A stretch of DNA of 64,000 nt from Nannocystis bainbridge (GTDB taxonomy: Bacteria; Myxococcota_A; Polyangia; Nannocystales; Nannocystaceae), in assembly GCF_028368995.1 (NCBI RefSeq), contig NZ_JAQNDL010000002.1, forward strand, positions 928,001-992,000, in the 5' to 3' direction. Positions 3,345-64,000 of the stretch are shown here, in pieces. Made by a program: the position numbers and the translations under genes. The notes beneath the pieces were generated by a model. The model searched no databases and had not been told where the DNA came from. It saw only the letters and a program-made list of their open reading frames with translations. How positions within the stretch are numbered: position 1 is the first letter of the stretch; each line of letters starts with the position of its first letter.

Positions 3345-3400
3345 TGGTTTTTGGGACATGCCCCGAAGGGCATGTCCGTCGAGACATGTCCGTGAAGACC
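3345..3400. repeat. Array of four phased 14-bp TGTCC-N4-GGACA-like units
   Basis: TGGTT-TTTG-GGACA|TGCCC-CGAA-GGGCA|TGTCC-GTCG-AGACA|TGTCC-GTGA-AGACC, abutting the GGAGG RBS of the GST gene. Confidence 0.85.
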
Positions 3401-3412
3401 TGGAGGACCCCG

Positions 3413-4072
3413 ATGCAGCTCGAGCTGATCAGCCACGCCCTGTGCCCGTTCGTCCACCGCGCCTGCATCATGCTGCGCGAGAAGGGGGTCGAGTACAGCC
3501 GCCGCGACATCGACCTCGACAACAAGCCGGAGTGGTTCTTGGCCCTGTCGCCGCGCGGCAAGGTGCCGGTGCTGGTGGCCGACGGGACGCCGCTGTTCGA
3601 GTCGGCGGCGATCGTCGAGTTCCTCGACGAGACCCACCCGCCGCCGGTGATCCCGACCGAGCCGTTCGCGCGGGCGCGCGGGCGGGCGTGGGTCGAGGTC
3701 GCCAGCGATCTGCTGATGGCGCAGTACCGGGTCTACATGGCGGCGACGCAGGCGGACTTCGAGGCGGCGGCCAAGACGGCGACGGCGGCGCTGGGCCGCT
3801 ACGACGATGCGCTGCGCAAGGGCGACCTGGCGGCGGACGAGTTCAAGCTGGTCGAGGTGGCGGCGGCGCCGGCGATGTTCCGCTTCGCGCTGCTGGCCGA
3901 CCACGCCGGCTGGGCGTTCTGGCCGGCGGGCTCGCAGGTCGAGGCGTGGGCGCGACGCCTGGCGAGCCGGCCGTCGGTGACTTCGTCGGTGGCCGAGGAC
4001 TTCGCCGAGAAGTTCCTGAAGCTGCTGGCCGACAAGAACAGCTACATGCTGAAGACCCGCCCGACGGCCTGA
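3413..4072 (+). CDS. Glutathione S-transferase family protein
   Basis: LCPFVHR active-site region, SPRGKVPVL, LFESAAIVEFLDE; GGAGG upstream of the ATG at 3413. Confidence 0.9.
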   Translation: MQLELISHALCPFVHRACIMLREKGVEYSRRDIDLDNKPEWFLALSPRGKVPVLVADGTPLFESAAIVEFLDETHPPPVIPTEPFARARGRAWVEVASDLLMAQYRVYMAATQADFEAAAKTATAALGRYDDALRKGDLAADEFKLVEVAAAPAMFRFALLADHAGWAFWPAGSQVEAWARRLASRPSVTSSVAEDFAEKFLKLLADKNSYMLKTRPTA

Positions 4073-4085
4073 GAGGAGCGTCCCC

Positions 4086-4700
4086 ATGCACATCGACATC
4101 GTGTCCGACATCGCCTGCCCGTGGTGCTTCATCGGCATCGAGCGGCTCGAGCGCGCGCTGGCCGAGACGGGGGCCGAGGCGACGGTGACGCTGCACCCGT
4201 TCCTGCTCGACCCCGACGGGCCCGACAGCGGGACCGACCTGCGCGAGCGCCTGCGCCAGAAGTTCGGCGGCGACCCGACGCCGGCGTTCGCCAACGTCGA
4301 GCGCGCGGCCCGAGAGTCGGGCATCGCGCTCGACTTCGCGAAGGTGCACATGGGCTACCCGACGCTGCGGGCGCACACGCTGCTGCGCCACTCGGTTGCC
4401 AAGGGGAGCCAGCGGGCGCTGTCGCGGGCGCTGTTCGCGGCCTACTTCCTCGAGGGCAAGAACATCGCCGACCCGGCGGTGCTGGCCGAACTGGCGGCGC
4501 CGCACGGGTTCGCCGCGGAGGAGGTTGCGGCGCTGGTCGGCGATGCGCGCGAGCTGGCCGAGACGCGCCAGGAGGCCGAACACGCGGCCCGCAACGGGGT
4601 CCGCGGGGTGCCGCTGTTCATCTTCGACGGTCGCACGGCGCTGTCGGGGGCGCAGCCGGAGGCGGTGTTCCGCGAGACGATCCGCAAGGCCGCGGGCTGA
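4086..4700 (+). CDS. DsbA-family oxidoreductase (FrnE-like)
   Basis: SDIACPWCFIG (CPWC) and GVRGVPLF...SGAQP; RBS AGGAG. Confidence 0.9.
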   Translation: MHIDIVSDIACPWCFIGIERLERALAETGAEATVTLHPFLLDPDGPDSGTDLRERLRQKFGGDPTPAFANVERAARESGIALDFAKVHMGYPTLRAHTLLRHSVAKGSQRALSRALFAAYFLEGKNIADPAVLAELAAPHGFAAEEVAALVGDARELAETRQEAEHAARNGVRGVPLFIFDGRTALSGAQPEAVFRETIRKAAG

Positions 4701-4794
4701 GCGGGCGCGTCAGGCGAGGGCGCCGAGGGCGAGCGACGTGCGCGCCGGCGACGGCGAGCTGCGTGCGCGCCGGTCATGGTCGGAGCGCGTGAGA

Positions 4795-4878
4795 TGGCTT
4801 TTCGAGCATGTCCTGATGGGCATGCTCGAGGCGACATGTCGATCGGGGCATGCTCCCGAAATCATGTCCCGAGAGACA
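4795..4878. repeat. Array of six phased 14-bp units between convergent genes
   Basis: CATG junctions at 4807, 4821, 4835, 4849 and 4863 (exact 14-bp period). Confidence 0.9.
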
Positions 4879-5398: not shown

Positions 5399-5413
5399 GC
5401 GGCCAGGGTAGCG

Positions 5414-7546: not shown

Positions 7547-7553
7547 GCCGACC

Positions 7554-8513: not shown

Positions 8514-9514
8514 GTCAGGTCCCCCGCGAGGAAGGCCGCGGCCTCGGCGGCGATGACGTCGGCCTCGCGCTCCAGCTCGACCTGGCCCATGAGCCAGATC
8601 GGCCGCGTGACCGCGATCCGGCGATCGACGGCCAGCTGGTGGCGGAAGTAGGTGCGCTGGCGCCGGGCGTAGCGCCGCGTCTGCTGCTTGATGGCAGCGA
8701 CGGCGTCGCCGAGGCTGAGGCCGGCGAGGTGATCGAGGATCTGGCGATAGCCGAGGCTTCCCATGGATCGATGGCGCGAATCATACCCAGCAGCGACGAG
8801 GTTGGACACCTCGGCGACGAGGCCCGCGCGGATCATCGCGTCGCAGCGGTCATCGATCGCGCGGTCGAGCGCGGTGTACTCGGGCTCGAGCACGACGGTG
8901 GCGAGGCGAGCTCGCGCACGCGGCGGGTCTTCGGCGCGGACGAGGCTCACGGGTCGATCATGCGCTTCGCACAGCCACAGGGCTCGCAGGGCGCGCACGA
9001 CGTTGCGCGGGTGGATCGCGGCGGCGGCTTCGGGATCACGGCGCTGCAGCTCCGCGTGCACGGCGCCCGCTCCCTCGCGCTCGCGTGCTTCCCACTGCGC
9101 GGTGAAGGCGGCGCGCCGCGGATCGCTCGCAGGGGCGTCGGCGACCGGATCGGCGCCGCTGTGCGTGTGCGTGACGGCGCGGAGGTAGAACCCGGTGCCG
9201 CCGGTGAACAGCCCTGGGCCGCGCGCGAGCAACTGCCAGGCGGACGACTGGTAATCTCCGGCGCTGAAGTCGGCGTCGGGATCGACGAGGTCGAGCAAGA
9301 AGTGCGGCACGCGCTCGCGCGTGGCCGCGTCGACCTTGGCGGAGCCGATGTCGAGGCCGCGATAGACCTGCACCGAGTCGCAGCAGAAGATCGGCAAGCG
9401 CAGGCGTTCGGCCAGCGCGACCGCGAGGCGTGATTTTCCAGACGCGGTCGGCCCGACGACGGCGAGCAGGCGCGGCAGATCGTGCGCGCGATCCATCGCG
9501 TCGTCGGCGGTCAT
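8510..9514 (-). CDS. miaA: tRNA dimethylallyltransferase
   Basis: GPTASGKS P-loop, DSVQVYRGLDIGSAK, GGTGFY, TRRYARRQRTYF; ATGA overlaps with mutL and accA. Confidence 0.95.
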   Translation of the reverse strand: MTADDAMDRAHDLPRLLAVVGPTASGKSRLAVALAERLRLPIFCCDSVQVYRGLDIGSAKVDAATRERVPHFLLDLVDPDADFSAGDYQSSAWQLLARGPGLFTGGTGFYLRAVTHTHSGADPVADAPASDPRRAAFTAQWEAREREGAGAVHAELQRRDPEAAAAIHPRNVVRALRALWLCEAHDRPVSLVRAEDPPRARARLATVVLEPEYTALDRAIDDRCDAMIRAGLVAEVSNLVAAGYDSRHRSMGSLGYRQILDHLAGLSLGDAVAAIKQQTRRYARRQRTYFRHQLAVDRRIAVTRPIWLMGQVELEREADVIAAEAAAFLAGDLT

Positions 9515-12500
9515 CCGCCTCCGAGCAGGGCGGAGCCGGTCCAGCGGCGGATCCCCGGCACCGACTCGAGCGCCGCGCCGGCGTCGACGAGCTCGGCGAG
9601 CCAGCGACGCGCGAGCCGGGGCGCCGGGTCGCCGCCGTGCGTGGTAGCGATCGCGTCGAGCAGCCCGCGTTCACGCGCCGCCCGGTCGCCGTCGGCGTCG
9701 CGGATCCGCAGCCACGGCACGATCCGGGCCACGAGGTCGGCGGCGTCGGCATCGTCGACGCAGTGGCGCAGGTGGGCCGGCACGCCGCGCACCACCACCG
9801 CGTCGTCGCCGAACACGTCGAGGTCGACGCCGAGGCCGAGCAGCTCGGCGCGCGCGGCCTGGATCAGCGCGACGTCGGCGGTCGGGCGCTGGACCACCGC
9901 CGGCGACAGCAGGCCCTGCACGGCGACGGCGCGGCGGCCGACCAGGTCGCGCTGCAGGCGGAGATAGACCAGGTGCGAGCGGACCCGCCGGAGGTCGACG
10001 GCCAGCAGCGCGTCGCGGTCGGCGAACACGGCCACCGGGCCCGGGAGGCAGGCGAGCAGGGCAGGGATGTCGGGCCGCGCGGTGGCGGCGCTGGCCTGTC
10101 CTCCGGGACCGGACTGTTCGCGCATGTCTCGCGGGACAGGTGCGTCGCCGGGCAGCAGCGCCAGCGAGGCCTCGCGCTCGGGCTCGGCCGGGCGCGGGGC
10201 GGCGCCATCGGGCCGCAGCGCGGCGGCGGCCTCCATCATCGAGCGCTTGTGGCGGTCGTAGCCGTGGTCGAGCGCGCGCGTGCTCAGGCGGTAGGCGCCG
10301 GGGCGCCGCTCGTCGGCCGCGGGCGCGGGCGCCGGCGCCGGGTCGGGCTGACGCTCGGACCAGCGCAGCAGCGGATCGGCGCTGGCGCGCAAGTCGGGTG
10401 GGAACTCGCCGTCGGCCCGCTCGATCCACGCGGCGGCGCGGTCGCGGGCCGGGTCGAGCTCGCCGACGGCGCCGGCGCGCGCCAGCCAGGCGAGGTCGTC
10501 GGGGGACATGTCCCCGGGGACAGGCACCTCGGGCCGCTCGCGGGCGGGACCGGTGCCCGAGGACATGTCCTGCGGGACAGGCGAGCGGAGCAGGGTGGGG
10601 CCGGCCGCGGGCGACATGTCCTCGGGGACAGGACGTGGGCTGGCCGAGGGCGCGGGGCTCGCGGATGGGTCCTCGGCGGGTCGAGCGGCTTGGCTACCCG
10701 AGGTTCGGGCAGCGACCGGATCGGCATCACCGGGGGTCGCTTGCTCGCGGTCCTGATCGGACCCGAATGGCATGTCCTGAGAGACATGTCCGAACGATCC
10801 GGGCCGAAGGGACATGTCCTCGGTGCCAGGTCGACCCGGGCCTGGCGCGGGCTCGCGGGACGAGTGCCGGGCGGCATCCGGATCGGCCAGGTCGAGGTCC
10901 CAGCCGGCGTCGCCCGTCGGCGCCGCCACGGTCGGCCCGGCGCCGGTCCGTCGCGCCGGCTCGGGGGCGGACGTGGCGAGCGCGGTCTCGACGAGCGGGC
11001 GGCGGGTGGCGTCGACCGAGGCCTCGGCGCGGCTCAGCCAGGCCTCGGCCTCGGCGCGGCGCCCGGCCGCCGCGGCTGCCGCTGCCTGCTGGGCGCGGCG
11101 GACGGCGGGGCCGGGCGCGTCGGACTCGAGGTCGTCGGCGCGACGCGGCGAGCTCGAAGACGTCTCGTCGCCAGCAGGAGCGCCGTCGTGGGCGTGCGTG
11201 GCCCTCGGAGCACCCGCGGAGACGTCGCGGCTCGCGTCGTCCCGCTGCGAGCGCGGGGGATCGCCCTCGTCGTCCGGGTCGTCGTCCTGCTCCTCCGGCG
11301 TCTCGCCGGCGTGCGGGCGCGCGGGGCGACGGCGCGGGTGTCCAGCGCCTTGTGCCTCGTCCTCGCGCGGGTCGCCGACGCGGACCGGCGCGAAGCCGAT
11401 CGGGATCGCGCCGCCGCGGCCGGGGGGCACGCCGGTCGCGCGCGGGGTCTCGCTCGCGGCTGGCGCATCGGACATGTTCGTAGCGACCTGTCCCGAAAGA
11501 CCGGCGAGTTCGCCGGCCCACGGCGCGGCGGCCACGGCGGCGGCGAGGATCCGGCGCACGGCCGCGTAGACCTGCTGCGGCTCGCTGAAGCGGACCTCGG
11601 CCTTTTGCGGGTGGACGTTGACGTCGACGGCGCCGCTGGGCGGCTCGACGAACAGGCAGGCCGAGGGGGCCTCTCCACCGAGGCCGTAGGCCTGGGTGAG
11701 GATCTGCGCCAGGCTGCGCTCCCGCACCACGCGCTGGCGGGTGATGAGGTAGGGGCTGCCGCGACCGCGGGCGGCGGCGGTCGGGTGGGGCAGGAAGGCT
11801 TCGACGCGGATGCCGTCGTCCTCGCCGCGGAAGGCGAAGAACGGGCCGCCGACGCGGCGCTCGAGCACCTGGGCGACGCGGCCCTCGCGGGTGGTCCGCG
11901 GCAAGTTGAGCAGCTCGCGCTTGCCGTGGCGCAGGGTGAAGTGGACGCCCGGGTGGACGATGGCGAGGCGCAGCAGGGTGTCGCTGCAGTGGCCGACCTC
12001 GGTCGCCTCGGCGCGCATGAACTTGCGCCGGGCGGGCAGGTTGGCGAACAGCGCGTGCACGTCGATCTGGGTCCCGACCGGCATGCCGGCCGGGGTGAGG
12101 ACGGGGGCCTCGCCAGGGATCCCGTGCAGGTGCACGCCGACGGCCGCGCCGGGCTGGCGGCTGCGCAGGTCGACGCGCGCGACCGCGGCGACGCTGGCGA
12201 GCGCCTCGCCGCGGAAGCCGAGAGTGACGATGTCGGCGATGTCGGCCGCGTGCCGCAGCTTGCTGGTGGCGTGGCGGGTGACGGCGAGCAGGAGGTCGTC
12301 AGGGTGGATCCCGCGGCCGTTGTCGCGGACGGAGATCCGGGCCATGCCGCCGTCCTCGAGCTCGACGTCGACGCGGGTCGCGCCGGCGTCGAGGCTGTTG
12401 TCGACCAGCTCCTTGATGACCGAGGCGGGCCGCTCGACGACCTCGCCGGCGGCGATCTGGTCGATCACCAGGGCGCCGAGCACGGCGATCCGTCCGGAGG

Positions 12501-15741: not shown

Positions 15742-16959
15742 GTGCGAGTCAGCGCCGTCGCCGTCCCCCGCGCGTCTCGCAAGTGTCGCTCAGGACATGT
15801 CCGATGGGCCATGTCCCTCGGGCTAGGTCTCTCGATCTGGCTCTCGGGACAGCCGGCGATCGCGGCCCCGGCGGCGCCGGCGACCGCGGCGCGGGCGGCG
15901 TTCGAGGCCGGCGCCAAGGCGTTCGCCGCCGGCGACTACGAGCGCGCGCTGGCGGAGTTCGAGCGGGCGATGGCGCTGCGGCCGTCGCCGAAGATCCACT
16001 ACAACATCGGCGTGTGTCGCCAGCAGTTGATGCTCGCGGCCCAGGAGCGGGGCGATGTCGCGGCCGAGTCGCTGCACGCGGCCGCGGCGGTCGAGGCGTA
16101 CAAGGCGTACCTGCGCGAGGTGCCGGACGCGGACGATCGCGGCGAGGTCGAGGCGACGATCCGCGATCTCGGCGGGACGCCGCAATTTCAGCTCAAACCC
16201 CTCCCATCGCCGCGCGGCGAGGGGACACCTGTCGGACGCGAGGACGCGGCGACGTCACCCGCACCTGTCCCCGAGTCGCCGCCGGTGCCTGTCCCCGATC
16301 CGTCGCCCGTGGCTCCACTGCCGTCCGGGGCGGACGCGCGCGAGTCGACGCCGCCGCCGGCCGCAGTAACACCGTTGTTCCGCGGTCGCGTCGGCGCGAC
16401 CTTCGGACTTAACGGTCAACCGCAAGTCGGCACGTCGCGGCTCGACGGCGCGGTGCAGGGCTTCGCGATGGCGCGGCTCGGCGGCTTCCTCGGCGCGCGA
16501 CGTCGGGTCTACATCGGCGGCGCCGGCTTGCTCGCGGGGGCCGCCGTGACGGCGAACGACAAGCTCGCCCTGCACATGCAAGCGGTGCTGCTCGACCTCG
16601 AGTACGCGCATCCGGTCGGTCGTGCGCGGCGCTTCGAGATCGTTGGCGGCGGGTTCCTCGTCCTCGCGCGCGAGGCTCTGCGGATCCGCGCGGAGGGGCA
16701 ACGTCCGGTGTGTGCGGCGCATTCCAGCGGAGGCCTCGTCAGCCAGCGGGGCGGGGCGGGCGCGGGTGGACGGGTCGGTTTCCACGTGCTACTTGGAGCG
16801 CGCAAAAACCACGAGCTCGGCGTGCGACTCTCCTCCGCAATTCTCGGCTTTGGACAGGGCACGGCGGCCGCCGGCTGCGAGCCGTCGTTCTCCCAGCTCG
16901 ATGTCCCGAGAGCCAGGTGGCTCGTCCTCGTCGACTCGGGTTACTCGTTCCGATTCTAG
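15742..16959 (+). CDS. Exported TPR protein with Pro-rich linker and C-terminal beta-rich domain ending in Phe
   Basis: Signal-like segment, TPR (AFAAGDYERALAEFERA...YNIG), C-terminus SGYSFRF; alternative start ATG at 15811. Confidence 0.7.
   Translation: MRVSAVAVPRASRKCRSGHVRWAMSLGLGLSIWLSGQPAIAAPAAPATAARAAFEAGAKAFAAGDYERALAEFERAMALRPSPKIHYNIGVCRQQLMLAAQERGDVAAESLHAAAAVEAYKAYLREVPDADDRGEVEATIRDLGGTPQFQLKPLPSPRGEGTPVGREDAATSPAPVPESPPVPVPDPSPVAPLPSGADARESTPPPAAVTPLFRGRVGATFGLNGQPQVGTSRLDGAVQGFAMARLGGFLGARRRVYIGGAGLLAGAAVTANDKLALHMQAVLLDLEYAHPVGRARRFEIVGGGFLVLAREALRIRAEGQRPVCAAHSSGGLVSQRGGAGAGGRVGFHVLLGARKNHELGVRLSSAILGFGQGTAAAGCEPSFSQLDVPRARWLVLVDSGYSFRF
15784..15851. repeat. Phased 14-bp array in the signal-peptide region of the TPR gene
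   Basis: TGTCG-CTCA-GGACA|TGTCC-GATG-GGCCA|TGTCC-CTCG-GGCTA, plus TGGCT-CTCG-GGACA at 15838. Confidence 0.75.
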
Positions 16960-18473: not shown

Positions 18474-18510
18474 TGGCTTCGAGGACATGTCCTGCAGGAC
18501 ATGTCCTCGA
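18474..18510. repeat. 14-bp array containing a perfect 32-bp palindrome
   Basis: TCGAGGACATGTCCTGCAGGACATGTCCTCGA at 18479-18510, between convergent genes. Confidence 0.9.
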
Positions 18511-19854: not shown

Positions 19855-19938
19855 TGTCGCAGAGGACATGCTCGGACGAGCATGTCGCCGGGGGCATGTC
19901 GCTTCGGGCATGTCGTTTCGGGCATGTCTCGAGAGACA
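19855..19938. repeat. Array of six phased 14-bp units between convergent genes
   Basis: TGTCG-CAGA-GGACA|TGCTC-GGAC-GAGCA|TGTCG-CCGG-GGGCA|TGTCG-CTTC-GGGCA|TGTCG-TTTC-GGGCA|TGTCT-CGAG-AGACA. Confidence 0.9.
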
Positions 19939-20809: not shown

Positions 20810-20995
20810 GGGGCGGCTTCGTCCGTCTGCGCCGGCGGCGCGTACTCGACAAGATAGACCACAGCCGGCCGACCAGGGCGGCGGGGTCGCCGAGCTTCAC
20901 GGGGCAGGCGCGTGGATTGCCGCGTGTGGGCCCGCACGTGAGGCAGTGCGGGGTCCGCGAAGTCCGAGCCGGGGGCGGCGGGATAGAAGCGAGCC

Positions 20996-21037
20996 TGTCT
21001 GAAAGAACAGGTCTCATGCGCTATGTCCGAAGAGACA
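20996..21037. repeat. Array of three phased 14-bp units (divergent intergenic region)
   Basis: TGTCT-GAAA-GAACA|GGTCT-CATG-CGCTA|TGTCC-GAAG-AGACA. Confidence 0.7.
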
Positions 21038-22978: not shown

Positions 22979-23034
22979 TGGCCGAAGCGACATGTCTTCA
23001 TGCACATGTCCGACCAGTCATGTTCTAGCGGCGC
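22979..23034. repeat. Array of four phased 14-bp units between convergent genes
   Basis: CATG at 22991, 23005 and 23019. Confidence 0.85.
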
Positions 23035-37515: not shown

Positions 37516-37556
37516 GGGCCTCGAGGACATGTCCTGCGGGACATGTCCTGAAAGCA
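37516..37556. repeat. Array of about three 14-bp units right after the paralog-5 stop codon
   Basis: GGGCC-TCGA-GGACA|TGTCC-TGCG-GGACA|TGTCC-TGAA-AGCA. Confidence 0.85.
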
Positions 37557-38155: not shown

Positions 38156-38423
38156 GAGCCGTCGAAGCGCCGTGTGGGGCGCCGCGCGGGCGCCCTGACG
38201 GACATGTCCCTGCGGACATGCGCATGGCGCCGGTGCCCGGCGCCATGTCCGAGAGCCTTCGAAGCGCCGTGCGGGCGCCCTGACGGACATGTCCCTGCGG
38301 ACATGCGCATGGCGCCAGCGCCATGTCCGAGAGCCTTCGAAGCGCCGCGCGGGCGCCCTGATGGACATGTCCCTCCAGACATGCACATGGCGCCATGTCC
38401 CGAGTGACATGCCCGAACGGGCA
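38154..38423. repeat. Three-copy composite tandem repeat (about 72-97 bp) built around 14-bp units and CATGGCGCC...GGCGCCATG hairpins
   Basis: Copies start GAGAGCC at 38154, 38251 and 38329; each contains GGACATGTCC-N4-RGACATG. Confidence 0.9.
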
Positions 38424-38427
38424 GGTC

Positions 38428-40230
<1,803 letters not shown>

Positions 40231-40370: not shown

Positions 40371-42230
40371 ATGGGAAAGCCCACTGCCGCGCCCGGGGAG
40401 CCTCATGGCTGGGGGATCCGCCTGTCGTTCCGCGGTCGCACGGTGGCCCAGATCGCGGCCGACGACGCCGCCCCGGTCGCCCTCGGCGAGGGCAAGGACT
40501 GCGATCTCGTACTCCCCGGTCTCGGCGAGCGCACGCCGCTGACCGACGGCGCGACCCTGATCGTCCCCGCCGGCCTCGTCGGTGAGATCCACGTCGGCGA
40601 GCGCACGCAGGCAGCGGAGGGCAGGGTGATCCTGGCGCCCGGCGACCGGGCCTCGCTGCGGATGGCGGCCCACCCGGACATCACGCTCGAGATCCAGCGG
40701 GTCACGCGCGAGCGCCTGCCGTGGTCGGCCCGCTTCCACGCCCGCGACCTGGCCCGTCAGCTCGTCACCGGGGCGGCGCTGGTCGCCATGGTGGCGCTGC
40801 TGTGGCGGGTCGAGGCGGCCGAGAACGTGCTCAAGCTGCGCGGGGAGCCGACGGCGGTCGACGACTCGCCGCTGCTGCGAGTGATGTTCGCGCCGACGCC
40901 CGAACCACTCGAGGTGGTCCGGACCCGCGAGCTGTTCCTCGCGCACCTGCCGCCGCCACCGCCGCCGGCCGCCGAGGAGCCTGGCCCGGACCTGGAGACG
41001 AGCGATCCTTCGGCGATCGCGCTGGCGCTGGGGGGCGTGGTCGAAGCCGCGGCGGTCGTGCCCGAGGAGGCGCCGGTCGAGGCGCCGCGCCCGGGCAAGA
41101 AGAAGCGCCGCAGCAAGCGCGCGCCGGATGTGGTCGAGTTCGGGGTCCTCAGCGCCTACGGCACCTTCAAGGAGGAGAGCGACGTCGCGTACCTCAGTAT
41201 GCTCGAGACGGGCAGTGATGACAGCGACGCCGTCGCGGTCCTCCGCGGCGGAGTGATCGGCGAGGGCGTCGGCGGGGGCGGCCTCGGCTACGAGGGCGGG
41301 GTGGTCGAAGGCGTCGCCGGCGGGGTGCTCGGCGGTGTCGTGCTCGACAGTGTGGCTGAAGGGACAGGTCTCGAAGAACCTGCCCCTTTGAACATGGTCG
41401 TCGGGACAGTCCATGAGATCGGTCCGAACTCGCACGCGGCGGCGGGGGCCACCGCGCCGCGCGGCGAGCTCGACGGCCTGGCGGCGGCGGTCGTCGCGAC
41501 CTCGTGCCCTGATCCCGCGATCGTGCGCAAGCAGCAGATCGACGTGGTGTTCGCGGTCGATGTGTCGACGACGATGAACTTCATGCTCGCCAAGATCGGC
41601 CGCGAGATCGCCGCGGTCGACGCGGAGGTGCGGCTCCACAACCTCGACGCGCGCTACGGCCTGGTCGTGTTCGTCGACGACGTGATGGTCACGAACGGCG
41701 GCCAGCCGTTCGCCGACCTGGCGGGGCTGCAGCAGGAGCTGACGCGGTGGCAGCGGTTCACCGCCGGCAACCGCGAGATCGGCAGCGCCGACGCCAACCT
41801 CGACTGGCCGGAGAACACGCTCGACGCGCTGCACGCGGCCGCGACCCGGTTCGCCTGGCGCGACCCGGCGACGACGCTGCGCGCGGTGGTCCACGCCACC
41901 GACGACGACTTCGGCGAGGCGCCCGCGGTGCAGAGCGGCCAGCGCGTGCAGCACGGCTACGGCGAGACGGTCACGGCCCTGCGCGCGGCCGAGGTGCGGG
42001 TGTTCAGCTTCGCGGCCAAGGTCGGCGGCCAGTGCGAGTGCCTCGACGTGCGCGCCGGGCTGTTCGCGCCCTACCGCGGGCAGCAGGCGATCCCGGCGGC
42101 GACCGGCGGGGCGGTGTTCGACATCGACGAGGTCGCGTCGGGCGCGCTGAACTTCGGCGCCGCGGTGTCGGGGGCGCTGAACTCGGCGGTCTGCACGCAC
42201 TATCCGCTCTCGCCATTCGCCGGCAAATAG
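40371..42230 (+). CDS. Membrane-anchored vWA-domain protein with N-terminal beta-rich cytoplasmic domain
   Basis: TM helix LVTGAALVAMVALLW, Pro/Gly-rich linker, IDVVFAVDVSTTM (MIDAS-like DxSxT), ENTLDAL, ATDDD. Confidence 0.78.
   Translation: MGKPTAAPGEPHGWGIRLSFRGRTVAQIAADDAAPVALGEGKDCDLVLPGLGERTPLTDGATLIVPAGLVGEIHVGERTQAAEGRVILAPGDRASLRMAAHPDITLEIQRVTRERLPWSARFHARDLARQLVTGAALVAMVALLWRVEAAENVLKLRGEPTAVDDSPLLRVMFAPTPEPLEVVRTRELFLAHLPPPPPPAAEEPGPDLETSDPSAIALALGGVVEAAAVVPEEAPVEAPRPGKKKRRSKRAPDVVEFGVLSAYGTFKEESDVAYLSMLETGSDDSDAVAVLRGGVIGEGVGGGGLGYEGGVVEGVAGGVLGGVVLDSVAEGTGLEEPAPLNMVVGTVHEIGPNSHAAAGATAPRGELDGLAAAVVATSCPDPAIVRKQQIDVVFAVDVSTTMNFMLAKIGREIAAVDAEVRLHNLDARYGLVVFVDDVMVTNGGQPFADLAGLQQELTRWQRFTAGNREIGSADANLDWPENTLDALHAAATRFAWRDPATTLRAVVHATDDDFGEAPAVQSGQRVQHGYGETVTALRAAEVRVFSFAAKVGGQCECLDVRAGLFAPYRGQQAIPAATGGAVFDIDEVASGALNFGAAVSGALNSAVCTHYPLSPFAGK
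41353..41408. repeat. Four phased 14-bp units inside the vWA gene linker
   Basis: TGGCT-GAAG-GGACA|GGTCT-CGAA-GAACC|TGCCC-CTTT-GAACA|TGGTC-GTCG-GGACA; locally A/T-rich codons. Confidence 0.75.
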
Positions 42231-42654: not shown

Positions 42655-42748
42655 TGTCCTCGAAGAACATGTCCCGAAGGCCAGCATGATATGTCCTCCG
42701 GGACACGTCGACAGGATGCCTGTCCCTGCGGACATGTCCGTTCGCGCA
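42655..42748. repeat. About six 14/15-bp units between convergent genes
   Basis: TGTCC at 42655, 42670, 42692, 42721 and 42735, paired with GGACA-like halves. Confidence 0.8.
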
Positions 42749-46183: not shown

Positions 46184-46578
46184 TGCCCGATCGGGCAGGT
46201 CCTCGCGGACATGTGTGAACAGACAGGACCCGAGGGCCATGGCCTTCGGGTCCTGTGCTTTCGGGCAGGTCGTCGCGCCCGCGATCCCATGAGCGGTCGA
46301 TGCTCCGGTGGGCCGTACCGAGGGGGTGAGCCAGCTCGCTCGCGCGGCGAAGGTGACGATGGCAGGGGCGCTGGTTCGCCCTCGGGCGGCTCCCCACGGC
46401 TCATCTTCGACCGATGCGCTCGCGCGGACTGCCGGTCGGCGCGCCTGTCGCTTCGGACATGTCCCGCAGGGCTGCCGCGCGGAGCCGACGGGCGCCGCTG
46501 CTGAGGGGGGGCCCCAGGGACCTGGTCCATCGGACATGGCCCGAAGGCCAGGGTCTTCGGGCCATGTCGCCCGGCGCG
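46184..46578. repeat. Three arrays of phased 14-bp units in one convergent gap
   Basis: Six units at 46184-46267, two at 46446-46473, four or more at 46509-46578. Confidence 0.85.
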
Positions 46579-49366: not shown

Positions 49367-52117
<2,751 letters not shown>

Positions 52118-52140
52118 CGGGCGCTCGTTCACGAAGGAAC

Positions 52141-52220
52141 GGGCATGTCCTCGCGGACATGCCCGTTTTTTCATGTGCGAAAGGACATGTCGTGAAGGGC
52201 ATGTCTGATAGGACATGCCA
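52141..52220. repeat. Phased 14-bp array between convergent valS and cdd
   Basis: CATG at 52144, 52158, 52172, 52186, 52200 and 52214. Confidence 0.92.
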
Positions 52221-52345
52221 GAGGTCGACGGCGAGGGAATGACGGGGGCTCACGAGCGCCGCGGCGCGAGGTCGCGGACCGGCGAGCGCCGCGGATCGTC
52301 AGCGAGTTCGAAGGTCGCGGCGTCGCGCTCGCGCCGGCGCGGCGC

Positions 52346-56795: not shown

Positions 56796-56909
56796 AACCG
56801 CGGGGACCCTGGTCGGGTCGTACGAGGGTCGATGCTGCGCACCTTCTTGTCATCTCTGGATTATGGCGGGTTTGGCCTGCACATCGATGATCTGGTCGAA
56901 GGCGCCGCG

Positions 56910-59518: not shown

Positions 59519-59552
59519 CCGCGTGGCGAGCGCCGTGGTATTCCTGCCGGCG

Positions 59553-60224: not shown

Positions 60225-63200
60225 CGACCGCCGCCGGCGGAGACGGCCCGCCGGAGCGGCAGGGCCGGCGATCGATGCGCGGCGAAGGGGAGTTGCGAGG
60301 CTCCGAGAAGTTCGACCGACGCACGACGAGCGGTAGTTCGCAACGGTCCGACCTTCGTTGCCCGGGAACGACGAGCGGTGAGTTGCAAAGGTTTGATCTG
60401 ACAGGGCCGGGAACGACGGGCGGCGAGTCGCGAAGGTCCGACCTGAAGGGCCCGGGAGCGACGAGCGGTGGGTCGCAAAGATCCGGCTCTCGGGGCCCGG
60501 GAACGACGAGCGGTGAGCTTCAAAGGTCCGCCCTGAAGGACCCGAAGACGACGAGGGGCGAGGCGCGCCGGTCCTTTCGGACATGTCGGAACGTTCTGGT
60601 AGCTTGGGCCATGTTCTTCGGGACAGGTTCAGTCGCGTGTCACTCGCGTCTGCCGCGGCTGTCCGAGCAGGGCCGCCACGCGGAGGTGGTGGAGCGCGCC
60701 GGGCAGGCGCGGATCCTGCCGCGCGGCAAGTCGGCGCGAGCGTGGGCTCGCTCGCTGGTGGCGCTCGGGCGCCCGGAGGAGGCGCGGGCGGTGCTGCTCC
60801 GCGATTTCCGCAAGCACGCGGAGCTGCCGTCGCTGGTGGCGCTCGCCGATCTCGAGGCTGCCGAGGGCCTGGCTGGCCTGGCGGCGGCTCACTACGCCCG
60901 CGCGGCCAGCCTCGAGACCGATCCGCTGGCGGGGCGGAGCGACGTGTGCGGGCTGTTTCGCCGCCGCGCGGCCCGGTTCCTGGCCGAGGGCGAGGCGCTG
61001 GCGGCCGATCTCGACCTCCGGCGCGTGGCGATGATCTGTCCCAAGGGCAAGACGAGCGCCGACGAGGTGCAGTGGCGAGCCGACCGCGCGCTGCACGAGG
61101 AGGTGGCGGCGGCGGCGAAGAGCCAGGCGCGCGCCCAGCGGACGCTGGTCGGCTGCGAAGGCGAGCGCTGCCGGCCGCCCTCGCTCGACTCGCGCACGCA
61201 GGCGCTGGCCCAGGCGCTCGCGCAGGCGCGGACGGCCGGGCCGGCGGCGCTGCGCGAGGCGGCGGTTCGGCTGGCGGTCCAGCTCGATCCGGGCGACGTG
61301 GCCGAGCTGCTGGCGGCGGAGCTGCGCGGGGAGCTCGGGCTGGATCTGGTCGACCTCGACGAGCTGCGCGGGTGGATCGGCGAGTCGGCGGCGGCGGACG
61401 TGGTCGCGGCCGCCGACGCGCGGGTGTCCCCGCTGGGGCGCGACTACGTGCGCCTGCGGCTGGCGCAGCTCGGGCCCGGCTACGAGCTGCCGGGCGACGA
61501 CGCGGCGCGCTCGACGGCGAGCACGGTGATCCGCCTGCTGGACGCGGCCGACGACGACCCTGGCGCGGCGGCGATGAGCTGGCGAGTGTTCGTGCTGCTC
61601 GGAGATCTGCCGAGCGCCGAGATGGCGCTGACAGGCAGCCTGGGGGCGCGCGCGGGGGCCGGACGCGCGGCGGCGGTGGCCGACGACCTGGCGCGCGAGA
61701 CGGCCGGGGAGCCGCGCGCGAAGCCGGTCGACGATGCGAGTCTGTCCAAGGGGACAGGTCGCAGAGCGAAGGGCAAGGGCGCCGCTGCGACGGGTGCTGG
61801 CGGTGCGATCCTGTCCGGAGGGACAGGTGGCACGTCGGGCAACAACGCTGGAGTGGCAGGGGCGAGCGTGTCCAAAGGGACAGGCCCCGGACCGGCAGGC
61901 GCTGGCGATGCGGGTCTGTCCGGAGGGACAGGTCGTGGGGCGAACGACAAGGGCGTCGCTACGAATTCCGGCCTGTCTGGAGGGACAGGTGATGCCAGGG
62001 GCCAGGCAGGCAGCGATCGTTCGGTCGGCGCTGCGAGTCCGGCGAGCGCCGCGAAGGCGCCCGGGCTGGCGCCGAGATCCGGCGAACCCGAGCGCACGTC
62101 GTCTGGCGCTTCGGACATGTCTTCCGGACCAGGTACCAGCGGCCCGGCGCAGCGGCTGGTCCCGCCGCCGGCGTTGTGGTCGGCGCGGGCCGCCGTCGAC
62201 GCCTCGACGCTGCCGCGGCTGTTGCAGCTGGCGCGCCTGCGCGGGGCCGCGGGGCGGCGCGACCAGGCGGTGGCGATCGCGGCCTGGGGGCTGGCCGAGG
62301 GCCAGGCGCGCGGGATCCCGGCGATCGCCGAGCTGGCGGCGGCCGAGGCCCGGCACGAGCTGGCGGCGGGTCGACCGTGGGCGGCGCTCGCCCTCGCGGC
62401 GGTGGTCCGCGGCGGTCCGACCGACGACGTCGTGCGCGCTGCTGGTTCGGCGCTCGTACTCGAGCAGGCCGCCTGCGGCGATCGCTGCGACCAGGCCGAC
62501 GACCGCGCCGCGGTGTTGCAGCTGTTCGGAGAGACATGGCTCTTGGAGCAGGAGCGGCGGGCGACCGAGTCAGCCCACGCGCGCGCGCCGGCGGGCCCGC
62601 GCGGGGCCGCGTGCCCGCTGCTGGCCGAGTCGCTGGCGCCGGGCGCGAGCGGACCGCTGGCAGACGCGCTGCGCCGCGCTCGCACCACGGGCCTCGGCGC
62701 GCCGGAGCTCGGCGAGAGGCTGCGCGGCGCGATCGAGGCCGACCTGACGCTCGACTGCGTCGGGCGGATCGCGGTGCCGCTGATGTACGCCGCCGACACG
62801 CGCGTGGCCGCGGAGGCGCTGGCCGACAACCTCGCTCACGTGCCGCAGGAGATCGCCGCCGGGCAACTCGCGCTGCAGTCGGAGCTGGCGCTGATGCTCG
62901 GTCGCCGCGACCACGCCGATCAGCTGGCCCAGGCGGCCGCGGCGGCGTCGGCCGATCCGCGGGCGGTGTGGCGGCGTGCGGCGTGGATGGCGGAGTGGAT
63001 CGACGCCCGTCACTACGAGCTGCTGGCCCTGCGTCAGCTGCTGCTGCACGGGGTCGACGGGAGCGAGGCCGACGAGGTGCGCCTGCGGCTGACGGTGCGA
63101 GCGGTGCGGGACGCCAACGACGCCTGGGCGCCGCGCAGCGCCGAGGCCGGGCGCGAGGCCCTGATCCGCGGGGTCGAGAGTTACCTGGCCGAGGTCCCGC

Positions 63201-64000
63201 CGGCGCGCCGGTGGCACGCCCGCGAGGCGCTGGCGCTGGCGCTGGCCGAGTATGCGTGGACCGACGAGCAGGCGGCCGCGCTGGTGCGGGCCGCGGTGTG
63301 GCCCGACCTCTCGACGGTGCTCACGCACCCGGCCGGGTTCCGCCGGCTCGAGCGGGCGTTCGGCGGTGATGTCCCCGGCGTCACCGCGCCCGAGCTGGCA
63401 CCGGCGCAGCTGGCAGCAGGGCTGGCCCCGGTGACGCCGCTGGGCGACCCGCGCGTGGTCGGCCGGCAGGCTGCGGCGAAGGGGGCTGGTTCGGCGCGGG
63501 CTGGCGGGAAGGACATGGCCTCGGGGGCAGGTTCGGCGGCGACCGCAGACGGCACGGCGTCGGGGGCCGGTGTCGCGCCGACAGGTGGAGAGGACACGGC
63601 GCCCGGCACGGACGCCCAGAAGCCTGGCGCGAAGGACATGTCGCCCGGGGCAGGTTCCCAGAGACCTGGCGCGCAGGACATGGCGAAAAGGGCAGGTCGA
63701 GAAGGACATGGCGGAGAGGACATGGCCTCTCGATCAGGTTCCGAAGGTCCTGGCGGATCCGCGCTGCCGGTCGAGGCGGAGGCGTTCTGCGCCGTCGATG
63801 CGCTGCAGCCGGCCCGGCTGGCGGCCCTGCGCGGGCTGAGCGGGGCGGCGCGGGTGCGGGCGGCGGCGGCGCTGGCGACCACGGGCGACGCGGCCGCGCG
63901 CAGGCAGGCGTTGCAGCAGCTGGTGGCCGGGCTCGATCCGGCCCGCCGCGCGGCCGTGCTCGACGCGGTCATCGTCGGTCTGGCCGCGGTCCCGGGCCGC
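60221..64000 (+). CDS. Very large Ala/Arg-rich helical-repeat protein, probable lipoprotein (partial, runs off the right edge)
   Basis: ATG at 60221 overlaps the upstream TGA (ATGA). I read this frame open through 60221-60800 and 61680-62160, and codon bias fits elsewhere. Signal-like RRSFRTCRNVLVAWAMFFGTGSVAC follows an N-terminal 15-aa repeat. Alternative start ATG at 60611. Confidence 0.7.
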   Translation, partial: MTTAAGGDGPPERQGRRSMRGEGELRGSEKFDRRTTSGSSQRSDLRCPGTTSGELQRFDLTGPGTTGGESRRSDLKGPGATSGGSQRSGSRGPGTTSGELQRSALKDPKTTRGEARRSFRTCRNVLVAWAMFFGTGSVACHSRLPRLSEQGRHAEVVERAGQARILPRGKSARAWARSLVALGRPEEARAVLLRDFRKHAELPSLVALADLEAAEGLAGLAAAHYARAASLETDPLAGRSDVCGLFRRRAARFLAEGEALAADLDLRRVAMICPKGKTSADEVQWRADRALHEEVAAAAKSQARAQRTLVGCEGERCRPPSLDSRTQALAQALAQARTAGPAALREAAVRLAVQLDPGDVAELLAAELRGELGLDLVDLDELRGWIGESAAADVVAAADARVSPLGRDYVRLRLAQLGPGYELPGDDAARSTASTVIRLLDAADDDPGAAAMSWRVFVLLGDLPSAEMALTGSLGARAGAGRAAAVADDLARETAGEPRAKPVDDASLSKGTGRRAKGKGAAATGAGGAILSGGTGGTSGNNAGVAGASVSKGTGPGPAGAGDAGLSGGTGRGANDKGVATNSGLSGGTGDARGQAGSDRSVGAASPASAAKAPGLAPRSGEPERTSSGASDMSSGPGTSGPAQRLVPPPALWSARAAVDASTLPRLLQLARLRGAAGRRDQAVAIAAWGLAEGQARGIPAIAELAAAEARHELAAGRPWAALALAAVVRGGPTDDVVRAAGSALVLEQAACGDRCDQADDRAAVLQLFGETWLLEQERRATESAHARAPAGPRGAACPLLAESLAPGASGPLADALRRARTTGLGAPELGERLRGAIEADLTLDCVGRIAVPLMYAADTRVAAEALADNLAHVPQEIAAGQLALQSELALMLGRRDHADQLAQAAAAASADPRAVWRRAAWMAEWIDARHYELLALRQLLLHGVDGSEADEVRLRLTVRAVRDANDAWAPRSAEAGREALIRGVESYLAEVPPARRWHAREALALALAEYAWTDEQAAALVRAAVWPDLSTVLTHPAGFRRLERAFGGDVPGVTAPELAPAQLAAGLAPVTPLGDPRVVGRQAAAKGAGSARAGGKDMASGAGSAATADGTASGAGVAPTGGEDTAPGTDAQKPGAKDMSPGAGSQRPGAQDMAKRAGREGHGGEDMASRSGSEGPGGSALPVEAEAFCAVDALQPARLAALRGLSGAARVRAAAALATTGDAAARRQALQQLVAGLDPARRAAVLDAVIVGLAAVPGR
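60324..60555. repeat. 45-bp tandem repeat, about 5 full copies plus degenerate flanks
   Basis: CGACGRG at 60324, 60369, 60414, 60459, 60504 and 60549; encodes TTSGELQRSDLKGPG-like 15-mers. Confidence 0.9.
61743..62131. repeat. Five near-perfect TGTCC-N4-GGACA sites plus a two-unit array in a Gly-rich in-frame linker
   Basis: Sites at 61743, 61812, 61869, 61917 and 61974 (each encoding (L/V)SxGTG); array at 62104-62131. Confidence 0.88.
63625..63750. repeat. Nine-unit phased 14-bp array (126 bp) inside a CDS
   Basis: TGGCG-CGAA-GGACA|TGTCG-CCCG-GGGCA|GGTTC-CCAG-AGACC|TGGCG-CGCA-GGACA|TGGCG-AAAA-GGGCA|GGTCG-AGAA-GGACA|TGGCG-GAGA-GGACA|TGGCC-TCTC-GATCA|GGTTC-CGAA-GGTCC. Confidence 0.85.

Follow-up and report, generated by a model that had tools for sequence, protein, structure and literature searches.

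The window, by which we mean the whole 64,000-nt stretch of Nannocystis bainbridge DNA analysed here (GCF_028368995.1, contig NZ_JAQNDL010000002.1, positions 928,001 to 992,000 of the forward strand), carries arrays of a short palindromic repeat, both between genes and inside predicted coding regions. The repeat is best described as a 14-bp unit in which a variable spacer of 4 nt follows a 10-bp arm, GGRCATGYCC; an equivalent description is a row of TGYCC-N4-GGRCA palindromes meeting at CA/TG. Arrays in the window were called with a PWM caller, which gives 20 arrays of 2–7 units, 12 of them with at least three units, rather than the about 25 arrays of 2–9 units counted in an earlier sequence-only reading. 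No Rfam match is found within the window. Gene positions, here and in the 11.05-Mb genome (5 contigs) that was scanned, are those of a crude model of our own (6,420 genes, 72% of the genome) in which starts are uncertain. The arrays and unit groups are listed below without strand; G010 and G001 are two sister species.

3354..3391, 3-unit array in a 43-nt tandem intergenic gap, 12 nt past the upstream gene's stop
4804..4869, 5-unit array between convergent genes, CATG at 4807/21/35/49/63
10509..10630, three single units (10509, 10566, 10617) in the disordered MutL linker, PVPxDMS on the minus strand
10768..10819, 3-4-unit array in the MutL linker
11470..11493, pair of units in the MutL coding region, the core of one being degenerate
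15793..15816, pair of units where a gene predicted from 15811 has its 5′ edge, kept in G010
18483..18506, two perfect arms in a convergent gap, 36 nt past a stop, 15-bp stem with a 4-nt loop
19864..19929, 5-unit array
20991..21014, divergent gap with a pair of degenerate units, cores CCTG and CAGG
22988..23025, 3-unit array in a convergent gap
37525..37548, two units 12 nt past a stop, CATG...CATG
38200..38428, three arrays (38200-38223, 38285-38308, 38363-38428) in a convergent gap, within a 78-bp tandem duplication
41362..41399, three degenerate units in a predicted coding region
42692..42734, convergent gap with strict single units at 42692 and 42721, and with units in G010 and G001 too
46193..46244, 3-4-unit array, CAGG cores in part, 19 nt past a stop
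46532..46569, 2-3-unit array 14 nt before a convergent gene's stop, kept in G010 and G001
52141..52220, 6-unit array starting 24 nt past the valS stop, CATG at 52144/58/72/86/200/214
60579..60630, 3-4-unit array with gaps on the 5′ side of a large ORF
61743..61930, four single units, read as LSxGTG, in a low-complexity part of that large ORF
63511..63727, again in that ORF, two phased arrays (63511-63534; 63634-63727, up to 7 units), DM(A/S)

The sequence-only reading had proposed a real, iterated and strictly phased palindrome, and this is borne out by counts far above those of shuffled sequence and of the reversed genome. The window holds 22 strict units (TGYCCNNNNGGRCA, TGYCC-N4-GGRCA) against 0.25 ± 0.48 in 100 dinucleotide shuffles, none of which reaches 22, and 28 copies of CATG-N10-CATG against 0.52 ± 0.72 expected; the CATG positions named earlier for the arrays at 4804..4869 and 52141..52220 are correct. 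A scan of the genome against background, which had been suggested as a check, gives 2,828 strict units versus 21 in the reversed genome, and arrays of at least two units number 2,470. Likewise, the autocorrelation anticipated at 14, 28 and 42 bp is present among the 39,940 CATG of the genome (3,736, 2,073 and 1,586 pairs, respectively) and extends to 56 bp (751) and 70 bp (383). The 14-bp phase is strict, because no excess stands beside these peaks at 13 bp (72) or at 15 bp (262, the usual level for multiples of 3). There is also a weak 42-bp super-period, i.e., four helical turns, in the arrays. When the spacer is reset to 0–3 or 5–9 nt, only 23–93 matches are obtained, versus 2,828 at 4 nt. 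Each arm fits the consensus on its own. TGTCC by itself is not enriched (1.2-fold). A lone arm is rare: of 2,237 GACATGTC words, 1,936 are accompanied by a second arm 4 nt away.

All three junction cores named in the earlier reading, CA/TG, CA/GG and CC/TG, do occur, but not on an equal footing: CATG is the core of 92–94% of inner units, and CAGG and CCTG are found chiefly at array ends, plus in a few all-CAGG or all-CCTG arrays. Nor are the central four nucleotides completely free to vary, as had been stated. The spacer is A/T-richer, its first position favours a pyrimidine and its last a purine, and these preferences are alike on both strands.

Neighbouring units are mostly not copies of each other, as noted before, but identical adjacent spacers are found in 75 of 1,670 cases, against 19.4 ± 4.7 expected, and from this enrichment it follows that slippage happens. 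Spacer identity at lags of one to three units amounts to 4.3–5.4%, against 1.2% by chance, several of the 12 longest arrays contain 42-bp higher-order repeats, and duplication signals appear at 14, 28 and 42 bp. At 19864..19929, two adjoining units differ by one base, indicating recent duplication. One orthologous array pair differs by exactly one 14-bp unit; the G010 counterpart of the array at 4804..4869 has six CATG and different spacers, and its span is exactly 14 bp longer. The former argument against slippage thus holds in that the arrays are not plain VNTRs, but it was too strong, since the identical spacers, the 28- and 42-bp higher-order repeats and the one-unit orthologue difference show slippage-type turnover. 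Arrays change by whole units, and unit number and spacers turn over fast between species with about 90% identical genes. Among 33 orthologous gaps compared, 12 have units in the window; of these 12, eight also have them in G010 and eight in G001, where 3.6 and 3.3, respectively, would be expected. Both species carry arrays in the gap of 4804..4869 and units in that of 18483..18506, and at the valS stop both have an unrelated hairpin in the array's place.

The lineage range is narrow. A survey of related genomes, again suggested by the sequence-only reading, finds the repeats in 11 of 11 Nannocystis genomes, about 20 single units in each of two sister genera (some in A/T-rich 5′ regions), and no arrays in thirty other relatives. 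Co-occurrence with a RAYT gene had been put forward as a further check, and none of the 11 Nannocystis genomes has a RAYT (Y1) transposase gene. The N. bainbridge genome contains no unit-flanked insertion sequence and no multi-copy element with unit-bearing ends, and no candidate binding protein for the repeats was found.

Arrays lie just past stop codons, chiefly between convergent genes. At least one array of two or more units is present in 663 of 1,224 convergent intergenic regions (54%), in 374 of 1,513 and 315 of 1,461 tandem ones (22–25%), and in 167 of 1,342 divergent ones (12%). A strict unit lies within 100 nt past the 3′ end in 26.8% of 2,234 convergent and 13.0% of 2,710 tandem cases, whereas of 2,585 divergent 5′ ends only 1.6% have one in the 100 nt upstream. 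The distance from stop to array peaks at 10–19 nt, a range that takes in 134 of 892 cases for tandem genes and 291 of 1,692 sides for convergent ones, and the longest arrays occupy entire convergent gaps, leaving 0–6 nt to each stop. At 3354..3391, the third CATG supplies the ATG of the next gene's start as predicted by our own gene model. Furthermore, 842 of the 2,828 strict units are inside predicted genes, with frame counts of 460, 315 and 67, and sit in tolerant places and frames such as the MutL linker.

Since each arm can pair with either neighbour, hairpins with 4-nt loops are possible on both strands. Neighbouring arms form 7.316 Watson-Crick pairs of 10, against 7.083 ± 0.014 for randomly paired arms; perfect 10-bp stems are found in 199 of 3,736 pairs (63 with random pairing), and complementarity continues at least 4 bp past the arms in 150 of 3,736 pairs (29 in the control). 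The 10-mer itself has no excess of self-complementarity (6.98 versus 7.05 expected). Positions (−1,14) and (2,11) covary and spacer positions show no pairing. Against pairing, a C at position 2 faces A 381 times and G just 146 times, and the core next to a non-CATG core is at least as often the same (39 times, 8.7 expected) as the complementary one (23 times, 9.2 expected). In the orthologues of 37525..37548 in G010 and G001, the pair reads CAGG...CCTG, a two-sided change by which the hairpin is kept. Stems are about 7–10 bp, and 12–15 bp in the folded examples. All six window folds (four arrays, two of them on both strands) beat shuffles, with z from −2.9 to −6.6: z is −4.5 on the plus and −2.9 on the minus strand for 4804..4869, −5.7 and −6.6 for 52141..52220, where a long stem from the first two arms is followed by T6, and −6.5 for 18483..18506 (−30.3 kcal/mol). 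Up to 150 nt from stops, the sense strand has more G.U-type than A.C-type mismatches (316 versus 210, p = 4e-6), and farther away the counts are 154 and 176.

Stop-proximal placement, convergent bias, stem excess and G.U excess point to hairpin elements at transcript ends. The arrays are not canonical intrinsic terminators, because a run of at least four T follows only 1.8% of 493 stop-proximal arrays. Folding energy in the 70 nt past stops is nearly the same with units (−31.2 kcal/mol) as without (−29.7). The pairing signal is small, with typical adjoining arms at 7–8 of 10 Watson-Crick pairs, roughly the level given by the consensus, and the G.U excess could also reflect a transcription-linked mutation bias. 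A strand preference would be expected of selected RNA loops, but the loop tetramers show none (TTCG 64 versus CGAA 55; GNRA 54 versus TYNC 61), and a function at transcript ends does not explain the 842 intragenic units.

Some features also fit a sequence-specific reader, namely autonomous arms, strand-symmetric spacers and intragenic units. The sequence-only reading had proposed arrays acting as double-stranded DNA platforms, on each 14-bp palindrome of which a putative dimeric protein would bind cooperatively; such a protein could be a nucleoid or topology factor or an RNA polymerase roadblock between convergent genes. Arms that match the consensus singly with little extra pairing (7.32 versus 7.08), the sole use of 4-nt spacing (2,828 versus 23–93), the lack of excess at 13 or 15 bp, spacer preferences identical on both strands, 842 intragenic units against 21 in the whole reversed genome, the weak 42-bp super-period and the single units of the sister genera, some in A/T-rich 5′ regions, all agree with this, and the MetJ met boxes are a precedent for phased palindromic arrays. 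Nevertheless, such a platform seems unlikely. No candidate protein was found, and a position 10–19 nt past stops, with few units at promoters (1.6–3.9% of divergent 5′ ends), is unlike that of operators. Independent half-sites would not be expected to give the excess of perfect and extended stems or the covarying pairs, nor a DNA site the G.U excess that the sense strand has near stops.

Doubtful to a like degree is the view that the units are selfish or neutral DNA without function, made and spread by a copying bias such as hairpin-templated repair, slippage or an unknown enzyme. Selection would then purge units only where they are harmful, so that the repeats would accumulate behind genes and in the disordered linkers of proteins; the tolerant places and unequal frames (460, 315, 67) of coding-region units, including the MutL linker, the filling of the space between convergent stops, the 14-, 28- and 42-bp duplication signals, the quick turnover between species with about 90% identical genes, and an expansion confined to one genus, the two sister genera having few copies, are in its favour. 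On the other hand, the sharp 10–19-nt peak, together with arrays that persist across species in 8 of 12 gaps, suggests that selection acts on their place, and the G.U excess near stops is strand-specific. With a RAYT gene in 0 of 11 genus genomes and no unit-ended multi-copy element in this genome, there is no known mobilising enzyme for the repeats.

Very improbable is a DNA-uptake-type signal spread by biased uptake and recombination in natural transformation, its inverted pairs co-opted as terminators as in Neisseria and Pasteurellaceae. Known uptake sequences are asymmetric with a single copy being enough, whereas here lone arms are rare and TGTCC alone is not enriched, and uptake sequences are not known to form strict 14-bp arrays. 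In favour of such a signal are thousands of copies confined to one genus and its nearest kin, pairs after genes, permissive intragenic copies with frame bias, and the DUS pairs themselves, which in the part of PMC2397512 drawn on here are terminators and lie in permissive regions.

Returning to hairpin elements at transcript ends, several known systems can be compared. Like REP/BIME of Escherichia coli and Pseudomonas, the repeats are lineage-specific short extragenic palindromes in hundreds to thousands of copies that gather behind genes, often in clusters, and can fold into hairpins on the transcript. Unlike them, the Nannocystis unit has 14 bp and no conserved flanking tetranucleotide, units abut in a single 14-bp phase whereas REP alternate with linker motifs, and copies are also found inside genes. 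A classical REP system is rejected, as none of the 11 genomes has a RAYT and N. bainbridge lacks insertion sequences flanked by units. MetJ met-box arrays and phased operator or centromere repeats are head-to-tail, strictly phased short palindromes as well, but there are only a few of them, they lie at promoters or plasmid centromeres, and the protein that binds them is known; in Nannocystis, by contrast, the arrays run into thousands and follow genes. HIP1, the highly iterated octamer palindrome of cyanobacteria, is vastly over-represented genome-wide, genes included, but its copies are dispersed and unphased, without fixed-spacing pairs or concentration at 3′ ends, so that the Nannocystis repeats resemble it in abundance and intragenic copies and differ in phase, pairing and 3′-end placement.

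Closer in placement is TRIT (“Tuberculosis Rho-independent terminator”), described in the sections of PMC3152330 used here as a mostly bidirectional palindrome of 147 copies in one genus, narrowly placed near stops; the sections of PMC13714241 used here later propose it as an RNase III site and describe species-specific 3′-end motifs. By these accounts, both families are terminator-like palindromes conserved in sequence and structure, genus-restricted and tightly spaced to stops, and a stem-reading factor is suspected for both. TRIT differs in number (147 copies versus 2,828 strict units and 2,470 arrays) and is a single longer hairpin at about position −8, inside the coding sequence, so that its description sets it apart from short phased units starting 10–19 nt past the stop. 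DUS/USS of Neisseria and Pasteurellaceae, as far as the same part of PMC2397512 describes them, are likewise lineage-specific hyper-abundant short words with copies in permissive gene parts, and inverted DUS pairs after genes work as terminators; the Nannocystis motif is unlike them in being palindromic, nearly always partnered at 4-nt spacing and arranged in tandem arrays. The repeats fail the tests made for membership in the REP/RAYT, HIP1 and DNA-uptake-sequence families, in line with the earlier opinion that they are none of these. That opinion also held that no known iterated motif has this consensus and phasing, and in the literature searched neither the repeat family nor its strict phasing was found described.

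Probably, the transcript hairpins would mark or protect the 3′ end, by bidirectional termination, by blocking 3′-exonucleases or as a processing site, for which REP elements, the mycobacterial TRIT motif and neisserial DUS pairs are precedents in other bacteria. Arrays may gain or lose 14, 28 or 42 bp at a time through copying that is slipped-strand or hairpin-templated, which is proposed because all arms are alike, and the arm sequence may be held by a sequence-specific agent, either a stem-reading factor or a biased copying process, that would also account for the copies in tolerant coding regions. Taken as one proposal, to which we give an even chance, the repeats are, by the literature searched, a new lineage-specific family of 3′-end hairpin elements comparable to REP, TRIT and DUS terminators, changing in slippage-driven 14-bp steps, with the arm kept by a sequence-specific agent.

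In the window (71.9% G+C), the strict unit TGYCC-N4-GGRCA, a 14-bp palindrome, occurs 22 times against 0.25 ± 0.48 expected, a count reached by none of 100 dinucleotide-preserving shuffles, and CATG-N10-CATG occurs 28 times against 0.52 ± 0.72. Both CATG series located by the sequence-only reading are correct (52144, 52158, 52172, 52186, 52200 and 52214; 4807, 4821, 4835, 4849 and 4863), and the strict phase that it described holds for the whole genome (11.05 Mb in five contigs, with 39,940 CATG), where CATG spacing peaks at multiples of 14 bp only.

Pairs of CATG at given distances in the whole genome
13 bp: 72
14 bp: 3,736
15 bp: 262, the ordinary level for multiples of three
28 bp: 2,073
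42 bp: 1,586
56 bp: 751
70 bp: 383

The strict unit is found 2,828 times genome-wide and 21 times in the reversed genome, and with a spacer of any other length from 0 to 9 nt it has only 23–93 copies each. Arrays were called with a position weight matrix derived from inner units, whose matches were chained at 14-bp steps. By this procedure the genome has 2,470 arrays of at least two units, of which 1,142 have at least three and the longest has 12; together the arrays cover 96,968 bases, or 0.88% of the genome. Their density is alike across contigs (180–271 per Mb; 25–89 arrays in full 250-kb bins). For the window the caller gives 20 arrays of 2–7 units; the phased arrays of the sequence-only reading are real, and its estimate of about 25 arrays of 2–9 units was too high. 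Single matrix matches (13,874 genome-wide) are contaminated, as 643 of 6,419 predicted starts score through ordinary start-codon context alone; a link of units to start codons was rejected for this reason, and only two-arm units and arrays are counted.

The logo of the unit is GGR-CATG-YCC followed by four variable bases, and two dyads alternate along an array, one through CATG and the other through the spacer. Among units with CATG on both sides (n = 2,073), the core C, A, T and G are each kept in 92–94%. The spacer is richer in A/T than the genome and tends to begin with a pyrimidine and end with a purine, on one strand as much as on the other. The spacer-centred dyad is the primary one. Of 2,237 GACATGTC words, 87% have a partner arm at 4-nt spacing: 660 have two, one to each side, and 1,276 a single one, which leaves 301 unpartnered. 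TGTCC alone is not enriched (1.2-fold), and GGACATGTCC, a 10-bp palindrome, exceeds the expectation from base composition about 100-fold. Next to the arms of lone units are C[A/C] and [T/G]G, with nothing conserved further out, and these flank positions covary (A-T 1,112, C-G 539, A-G 399, C-T 473), while self-complementarity of the 10-mer is slightly below the prediction from its halves (6.98 vs 7.05 ± 0.02). Because of the partner arms, the non-enrichment of TGTCC, the covarying flanks and this weak self-complementarity, the 14-bp unit originally proposed is a fair description, with CA|GG and CC|TG as its end forms. A few arrays are made wholly of CAGG or CCTG cores.

Genes were predicted by a crude model based on third-position G+C (6,420 genes, 72% of the genome), in which stops are exact and starts uncertain.

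Placement of arrays relative to predicted genes (arrays of at least three units, n = 1,142; gaps holding an array of at least two units)
Between convergent genes: 505 arrays; 663 of 1,224 gaps (54%)
Tandem gaps: 218 and 200 arrays; 374 of 1,513 (25%) and 315 of 1,461 gaps (22%)
Divergent gaps: 67 arrays; 167 of 1,342 gaps (12%)
Inside predicted genes: 152 arrays

Arrays of tandem gaps lie close to the upstream gene, at a stop-to-array distance that peaks at 10–19 nt (134 of 892), and in convergent gaps a peak at this distance is present on both sides (291 of 1,692). A strict unit follows within 100 nt of 26.8% of convergent and 13.0% of tandem 3′ ends, whereas only 1.6% of divergent 5′ ends have one within 100 nt upstream. 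The longest arrays occupy an entire convergent gap, with 0–6 nt left to each stop. A canonical intrinsic terminator, namely a G+C-rich hairpin with a U-tract, was rejected as an explanation because T-runs are nearly absent: the hairpins are present, but of 493 stop-proximal arrays only 1.8% have a run of four or more T behind them, an exception being the array after valS (52141) with its T6. In this 72% G+C genome, folding energy after stops is near-equal with and without units. Metagenome and metatranscriptome contigs contain at most 0.21 of the sampled words; the four compared are from relatives of 90–95% similarity, and three of them (one each in X1, X5 and X7) match up to the valS stop (52117–52119), two continuing with non-matching letters, a boundary that does not bear on RNA ends.

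Units are also found within genes. Inside predicted genes lie 842 of the 2,828 strict units, evenly along gene length, with frame counts of 460, 315 and 67, the rare frame being one that would encode cysteine. It follows that units must be made or spread by a process that acts on DNA, at any site that tolerates them. Two genes of the window serve as examples:

9511–12483, minus strand: MutL, with a linker of about 500 residues and five or six units at about residues 551–658 (DNA 10509–10830)
60686–64108, plus strand: a large ORF with no Pfam match and with units in low-complexity stretches

In MutL, which has ATPase domains at 17–316 and a dimerisation domain at 818–921, the units lie in the disordered linker and read PVPxDMS; across three species, this linker differs by hundreds of bases in length and also in unit content. 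Units of the large ORF read LSxGTG (about 61743–61974) and DM(A/S) (about 63511–63727), and a phased array of up to seven units lies inside the reading frame. Upstream of this ORF is a separate 45-bp tandem repeat (60323–60574), with about five copies and higher-order periods of 90 and 135 bp; in two other species of the genus (G010 and G001), the orthologous gaps lack it and are shorter by about 310 bp. One fully palindromic 14-mer, whose loop is CCGG, is present in the window at 6782, 10509, 17469 and 21962, in all four cases inside a predicted gene. The 18- and 36-bp tandem repeats at 38526–38649 (about five copies), in the minus-strand gene 38428–40230, have no relation to the 14-bp family and probably code for a repeat.

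How arrays change was followed in 80 kb syntenic to the window from G010 and G001, whose genes are about 84–94% identical to those of the window. Twelve of 33 orthologous gaps hold units in the window, and in each of G010 and G001 eight of these have them too, where independence would give 3.6 and 3.3, respectively; the excess is partly a shared preference for convergent gaps. Spacers and unit number of shared arrays differ between species. For example, the array at 4804–4869 has five CATG in the window and six in G010, where its span is exactly 14 bp longer. At 37525, a CATG...CATG pair corresponds to CAGG...CCTG in both other species, with pairing kept, and 3′ of valS, the array with the T6 run is represented in both by an unrelated hairpin. 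Behind valS, the window has a gap of 228 bp (52118–52345), as compared with 3.6 kb for G010 and 4.3 kb for G001, which implies an insertion in the latter two or a deletion in the window.

Within arrays, 75 of 1,670 pairs of adjacent spacers are identical (19.4 ± 4.7 expected); among 869 pairs at a distance of two units, 44 are identical and 33 reverse-complementary. Spacer identity is 4.3%, 4.3% and 5.4% at lags of one, two and three units, compared with 1.2% by chance, and a higher-order period of 42 bp, or three units, appears in several of the 12 longest arrays. This period is seen at C3:1347899, C3:1816604, C1:638595 and C2:2022975 (contigs of the source genome); spacer identity is slightly highest at lags of three and six units, and 42 bp is equal to four helical turns as well as a multiple of three. 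The identical spacers and the unit-step differences between species indicate that array turnover consists in one to three units being duplicated or lost, with the arms remaining near consensus. Slippage had been disfavoured by the sequence-only reading on the ground that neighbouring units are not copies; most are indeed unlike, but identical adjacent spacers exceed chance. Furthermore, a 78-bp tandem duplication at 38240–38395 (2.0 copies, 93% match) contains units, so larger unit-bearing blocks also duplicate.

Several features of the arms speak for pairing. Adjacent arms are more complementary than random pairs (7.316 vs 7.083 ± 0.014 of 10), perfect 10-bp stems number 199 against 63 in random pairing, and in 150 of 3,736 pairs (29 in the control) complementarity continues past the arms for 4 bp or more. 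Covariation is seen between positions 2 and 11, with an odds ratio of about 2.4, and spacer positions do not pair. Four arrays of the window were folded as RNA, two on both strands, and all six folds beat shuffles, with z from −2.9 to −6.6, and the folded stems at 52141, 18483 and 4804 are 12–15 bp long. In tandem gaps, the sense strand has 316 G·U-type and 210 A·C-type mismatches up to 150 nt from the stop (p = 4e-6), as compared with 154 and 176 further away. This excess near stops fits selection on RNA, to which transcription-linked mutation bias could contribute.

Other features are against pure structure. The pairing excess is small and typical stems have two or three mismatches; C at position 2 faces A in 381 cases and G in 146; loop tetramers have no strand preference; and T-runs after arrays are nearly absent. 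After a non-CATG core, the next core is the same in 39 and complementary in 23 cases (about nine expected for each), so that when core covariation between CAGG and CCTG is taken as a hairpin test, same-core neighbours are at least as enriched. Taken together, these features indicate that the arm is held to sequence, not merely to its partner.

From this combination we infer, with about an even chance of being right, that the arrays are transcript-end hairpins: hairpins would form at the ends of transcripts, the arrays would grow and shrink by slippage, and a sequence-specific agent would keep the arm sequence. It is unlikely that the arrays are a DNA-binding platform, as in the cooperative protein-binding arrays first proposed. 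Strictly phased tandem palindromic units are shared with MetJ-like operators, and the strand-neutral loops and the arm held to sequence are set against pure structure; unlike such operators, however, the units are placed at convergent 3′ ends (26.8%) rather than at divergent 5′ ends (1.6%), and no candidate for a protein that binds the units was found. Equally improbable is a drive without function. Units do lie within genes, where a DNA-level process must have put them, and arrays do turn over by duplication and loss; the G·U excess near stops fits selection on RNA.

Among known systems, those that behave most like the arrays are REP elements, the mycobacterial TRIT motif and pairs of neisserial DNA uptake sequences (DUS). 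REP elements are similar in that abundant extragenic palindromes are concentrated after genes. A REP element is an imperfect palindrome of about 20–40 bp with a conserved head tetranucleotide, while the Nannocystis unit is 14 bp and has no conserved flank beyond C[A/C] and [T/G]G. A REP/RAYT system was rejected, since the Y1 transposase domain PF01797 is found in none of 11 genomes of the genus, whereas it is detected in the control genomes and, over all relatives, in 17 of 41. An origin from MITEs or insertion sequences was also rejected for this genome: 24-mers with three or more occurrences define 30 repeated stretches of 500 bp or longer, and a unit lies close to one end of just one of these and to both ends of none. 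The TRIT ("Tuberculosis Rho-independent terminator") motif is described as 147 palindromic, mostly bidirectional copies in one genus, narrowly placed near stops (PMC3152330), and was later proposed to be an RNase III site (PMC13714241); as a conserved, mostly bidirectional palindrome near gene termini in one lineage, it resembles the Nannocystis arrays. Pairs of DUS are reported to be terminators (PMC2397512). That the units are themselves a DNA-uptake-type signal is very improbable, as a single asymmetric word is over-represented in DUS, while in Nannocystis it is the palindrome (about 100-fold, against 1.2-fold for TGTCC), with 87% of GACATGTC words partnered. From REP, TRIT and DUS pairs alike, the arrays are set apart by their 14-bp unit, by the strict phase in which units follow head to tail, by the absence of a RAYT gene and by the proportion of gene ends at which they occur. 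Rfam 15 has no match at gathering score within the window. The literature searched gave no description of the Nannocystis repeat; among the matches listed for its 10-mer word, papers mostly concern p53 and none bacterial repeats. The arrays are a new, very abundant, lineage-specific member of a broad class, the sequence-conserved gene-end palindromes.

Taxonomic range was probed with four CATG at 14-bp steps, for which the backwards control is 0 everywhere. This pattern occurs 869 times in the source genome, 409–527 times in five large genomes of the genus and 1–13 times in five smaller or fragmented ones, and is absent, outside the genus, from 14 genera of its family and another 16 genomes of its class. 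A five-CATG scan over one genome per species gave many Nannocystis loci (exedens, pusilla, punicea, radixulma and sp.) and one or two loci per record in other taxa, among the 80 of 117 matches listed. Exact CATGTCC-N4-GGACATG is found 369 times in the source genome, 2–266 times in the other ten of the genus, five and two times in two sister genera (G011 and G013, respectively) and in none of 28 others. The shorter ATGTCC-N4-GGACAT occurs 78 times in genome G009, 23 in G011 and 22 in G013, and is absent from G019 and G024; controls are 0. Nine of the 22 units of G013 are not independent, because all nine are copies of a single site in a multi-copy element that is at least 2.8 kb long. Eight copies of this element (loci L146–L153; seven 99.6–99.8% identical to the first, one 96%) each have one unit with the same loop in apparent coding sequence. 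In G011 (about 60% G+C), loci L139, L141 and L142 carry exact single units at position about 1500, with A/T-only loops and in A/T-rich 5′ regions, and in L139 and L141 the right-arm ATG could be the start codon of a secreted-protein gene; such single units may represent an ancestral regulatory use. Low-copy units in sister genera and arrays in the genus indicate that the unit predates the genus, and that expansion and array formation took place within it.

A more specific possibility, less probable again than a binding platform or a drive, is that a protein of the lineage recognises the 14-bp palindrome and punctuates gene ends by binding, either cooperatively to arrays on DNA or to the stacked RNA stems. 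If so, the arrays would be a roadblock or insulator between convergent genes in a genome nearly without U-tract terminators, the sister-genus units would be ancestral operators, and the thousands of units in Nannocystis would be a later expansion.

Lineage-specific post-gene palindromes, such as REP, TRIT, DUS pairs and Correia elements, are described as shaping transcript ends in a species-specific manner (PMC13714241). Nannocystis is an extreme and unusually regular case. With more than half of convergent pairs carrying an array, a 14-bp unit, strict phase, no RAYT and few units in sister genera, it is a clean system for asking whether the sequence is maintained by a factor that binds it or by biased copying, by what means transcripts are ended in high-G+C bacteria that lack U-tract terminators, and how repeat families of this type arise and expand. 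The arrays are also ready-made strain-typing markers and candidate compact bidirectional terminators for engineering myxobacterial natural-product producers.
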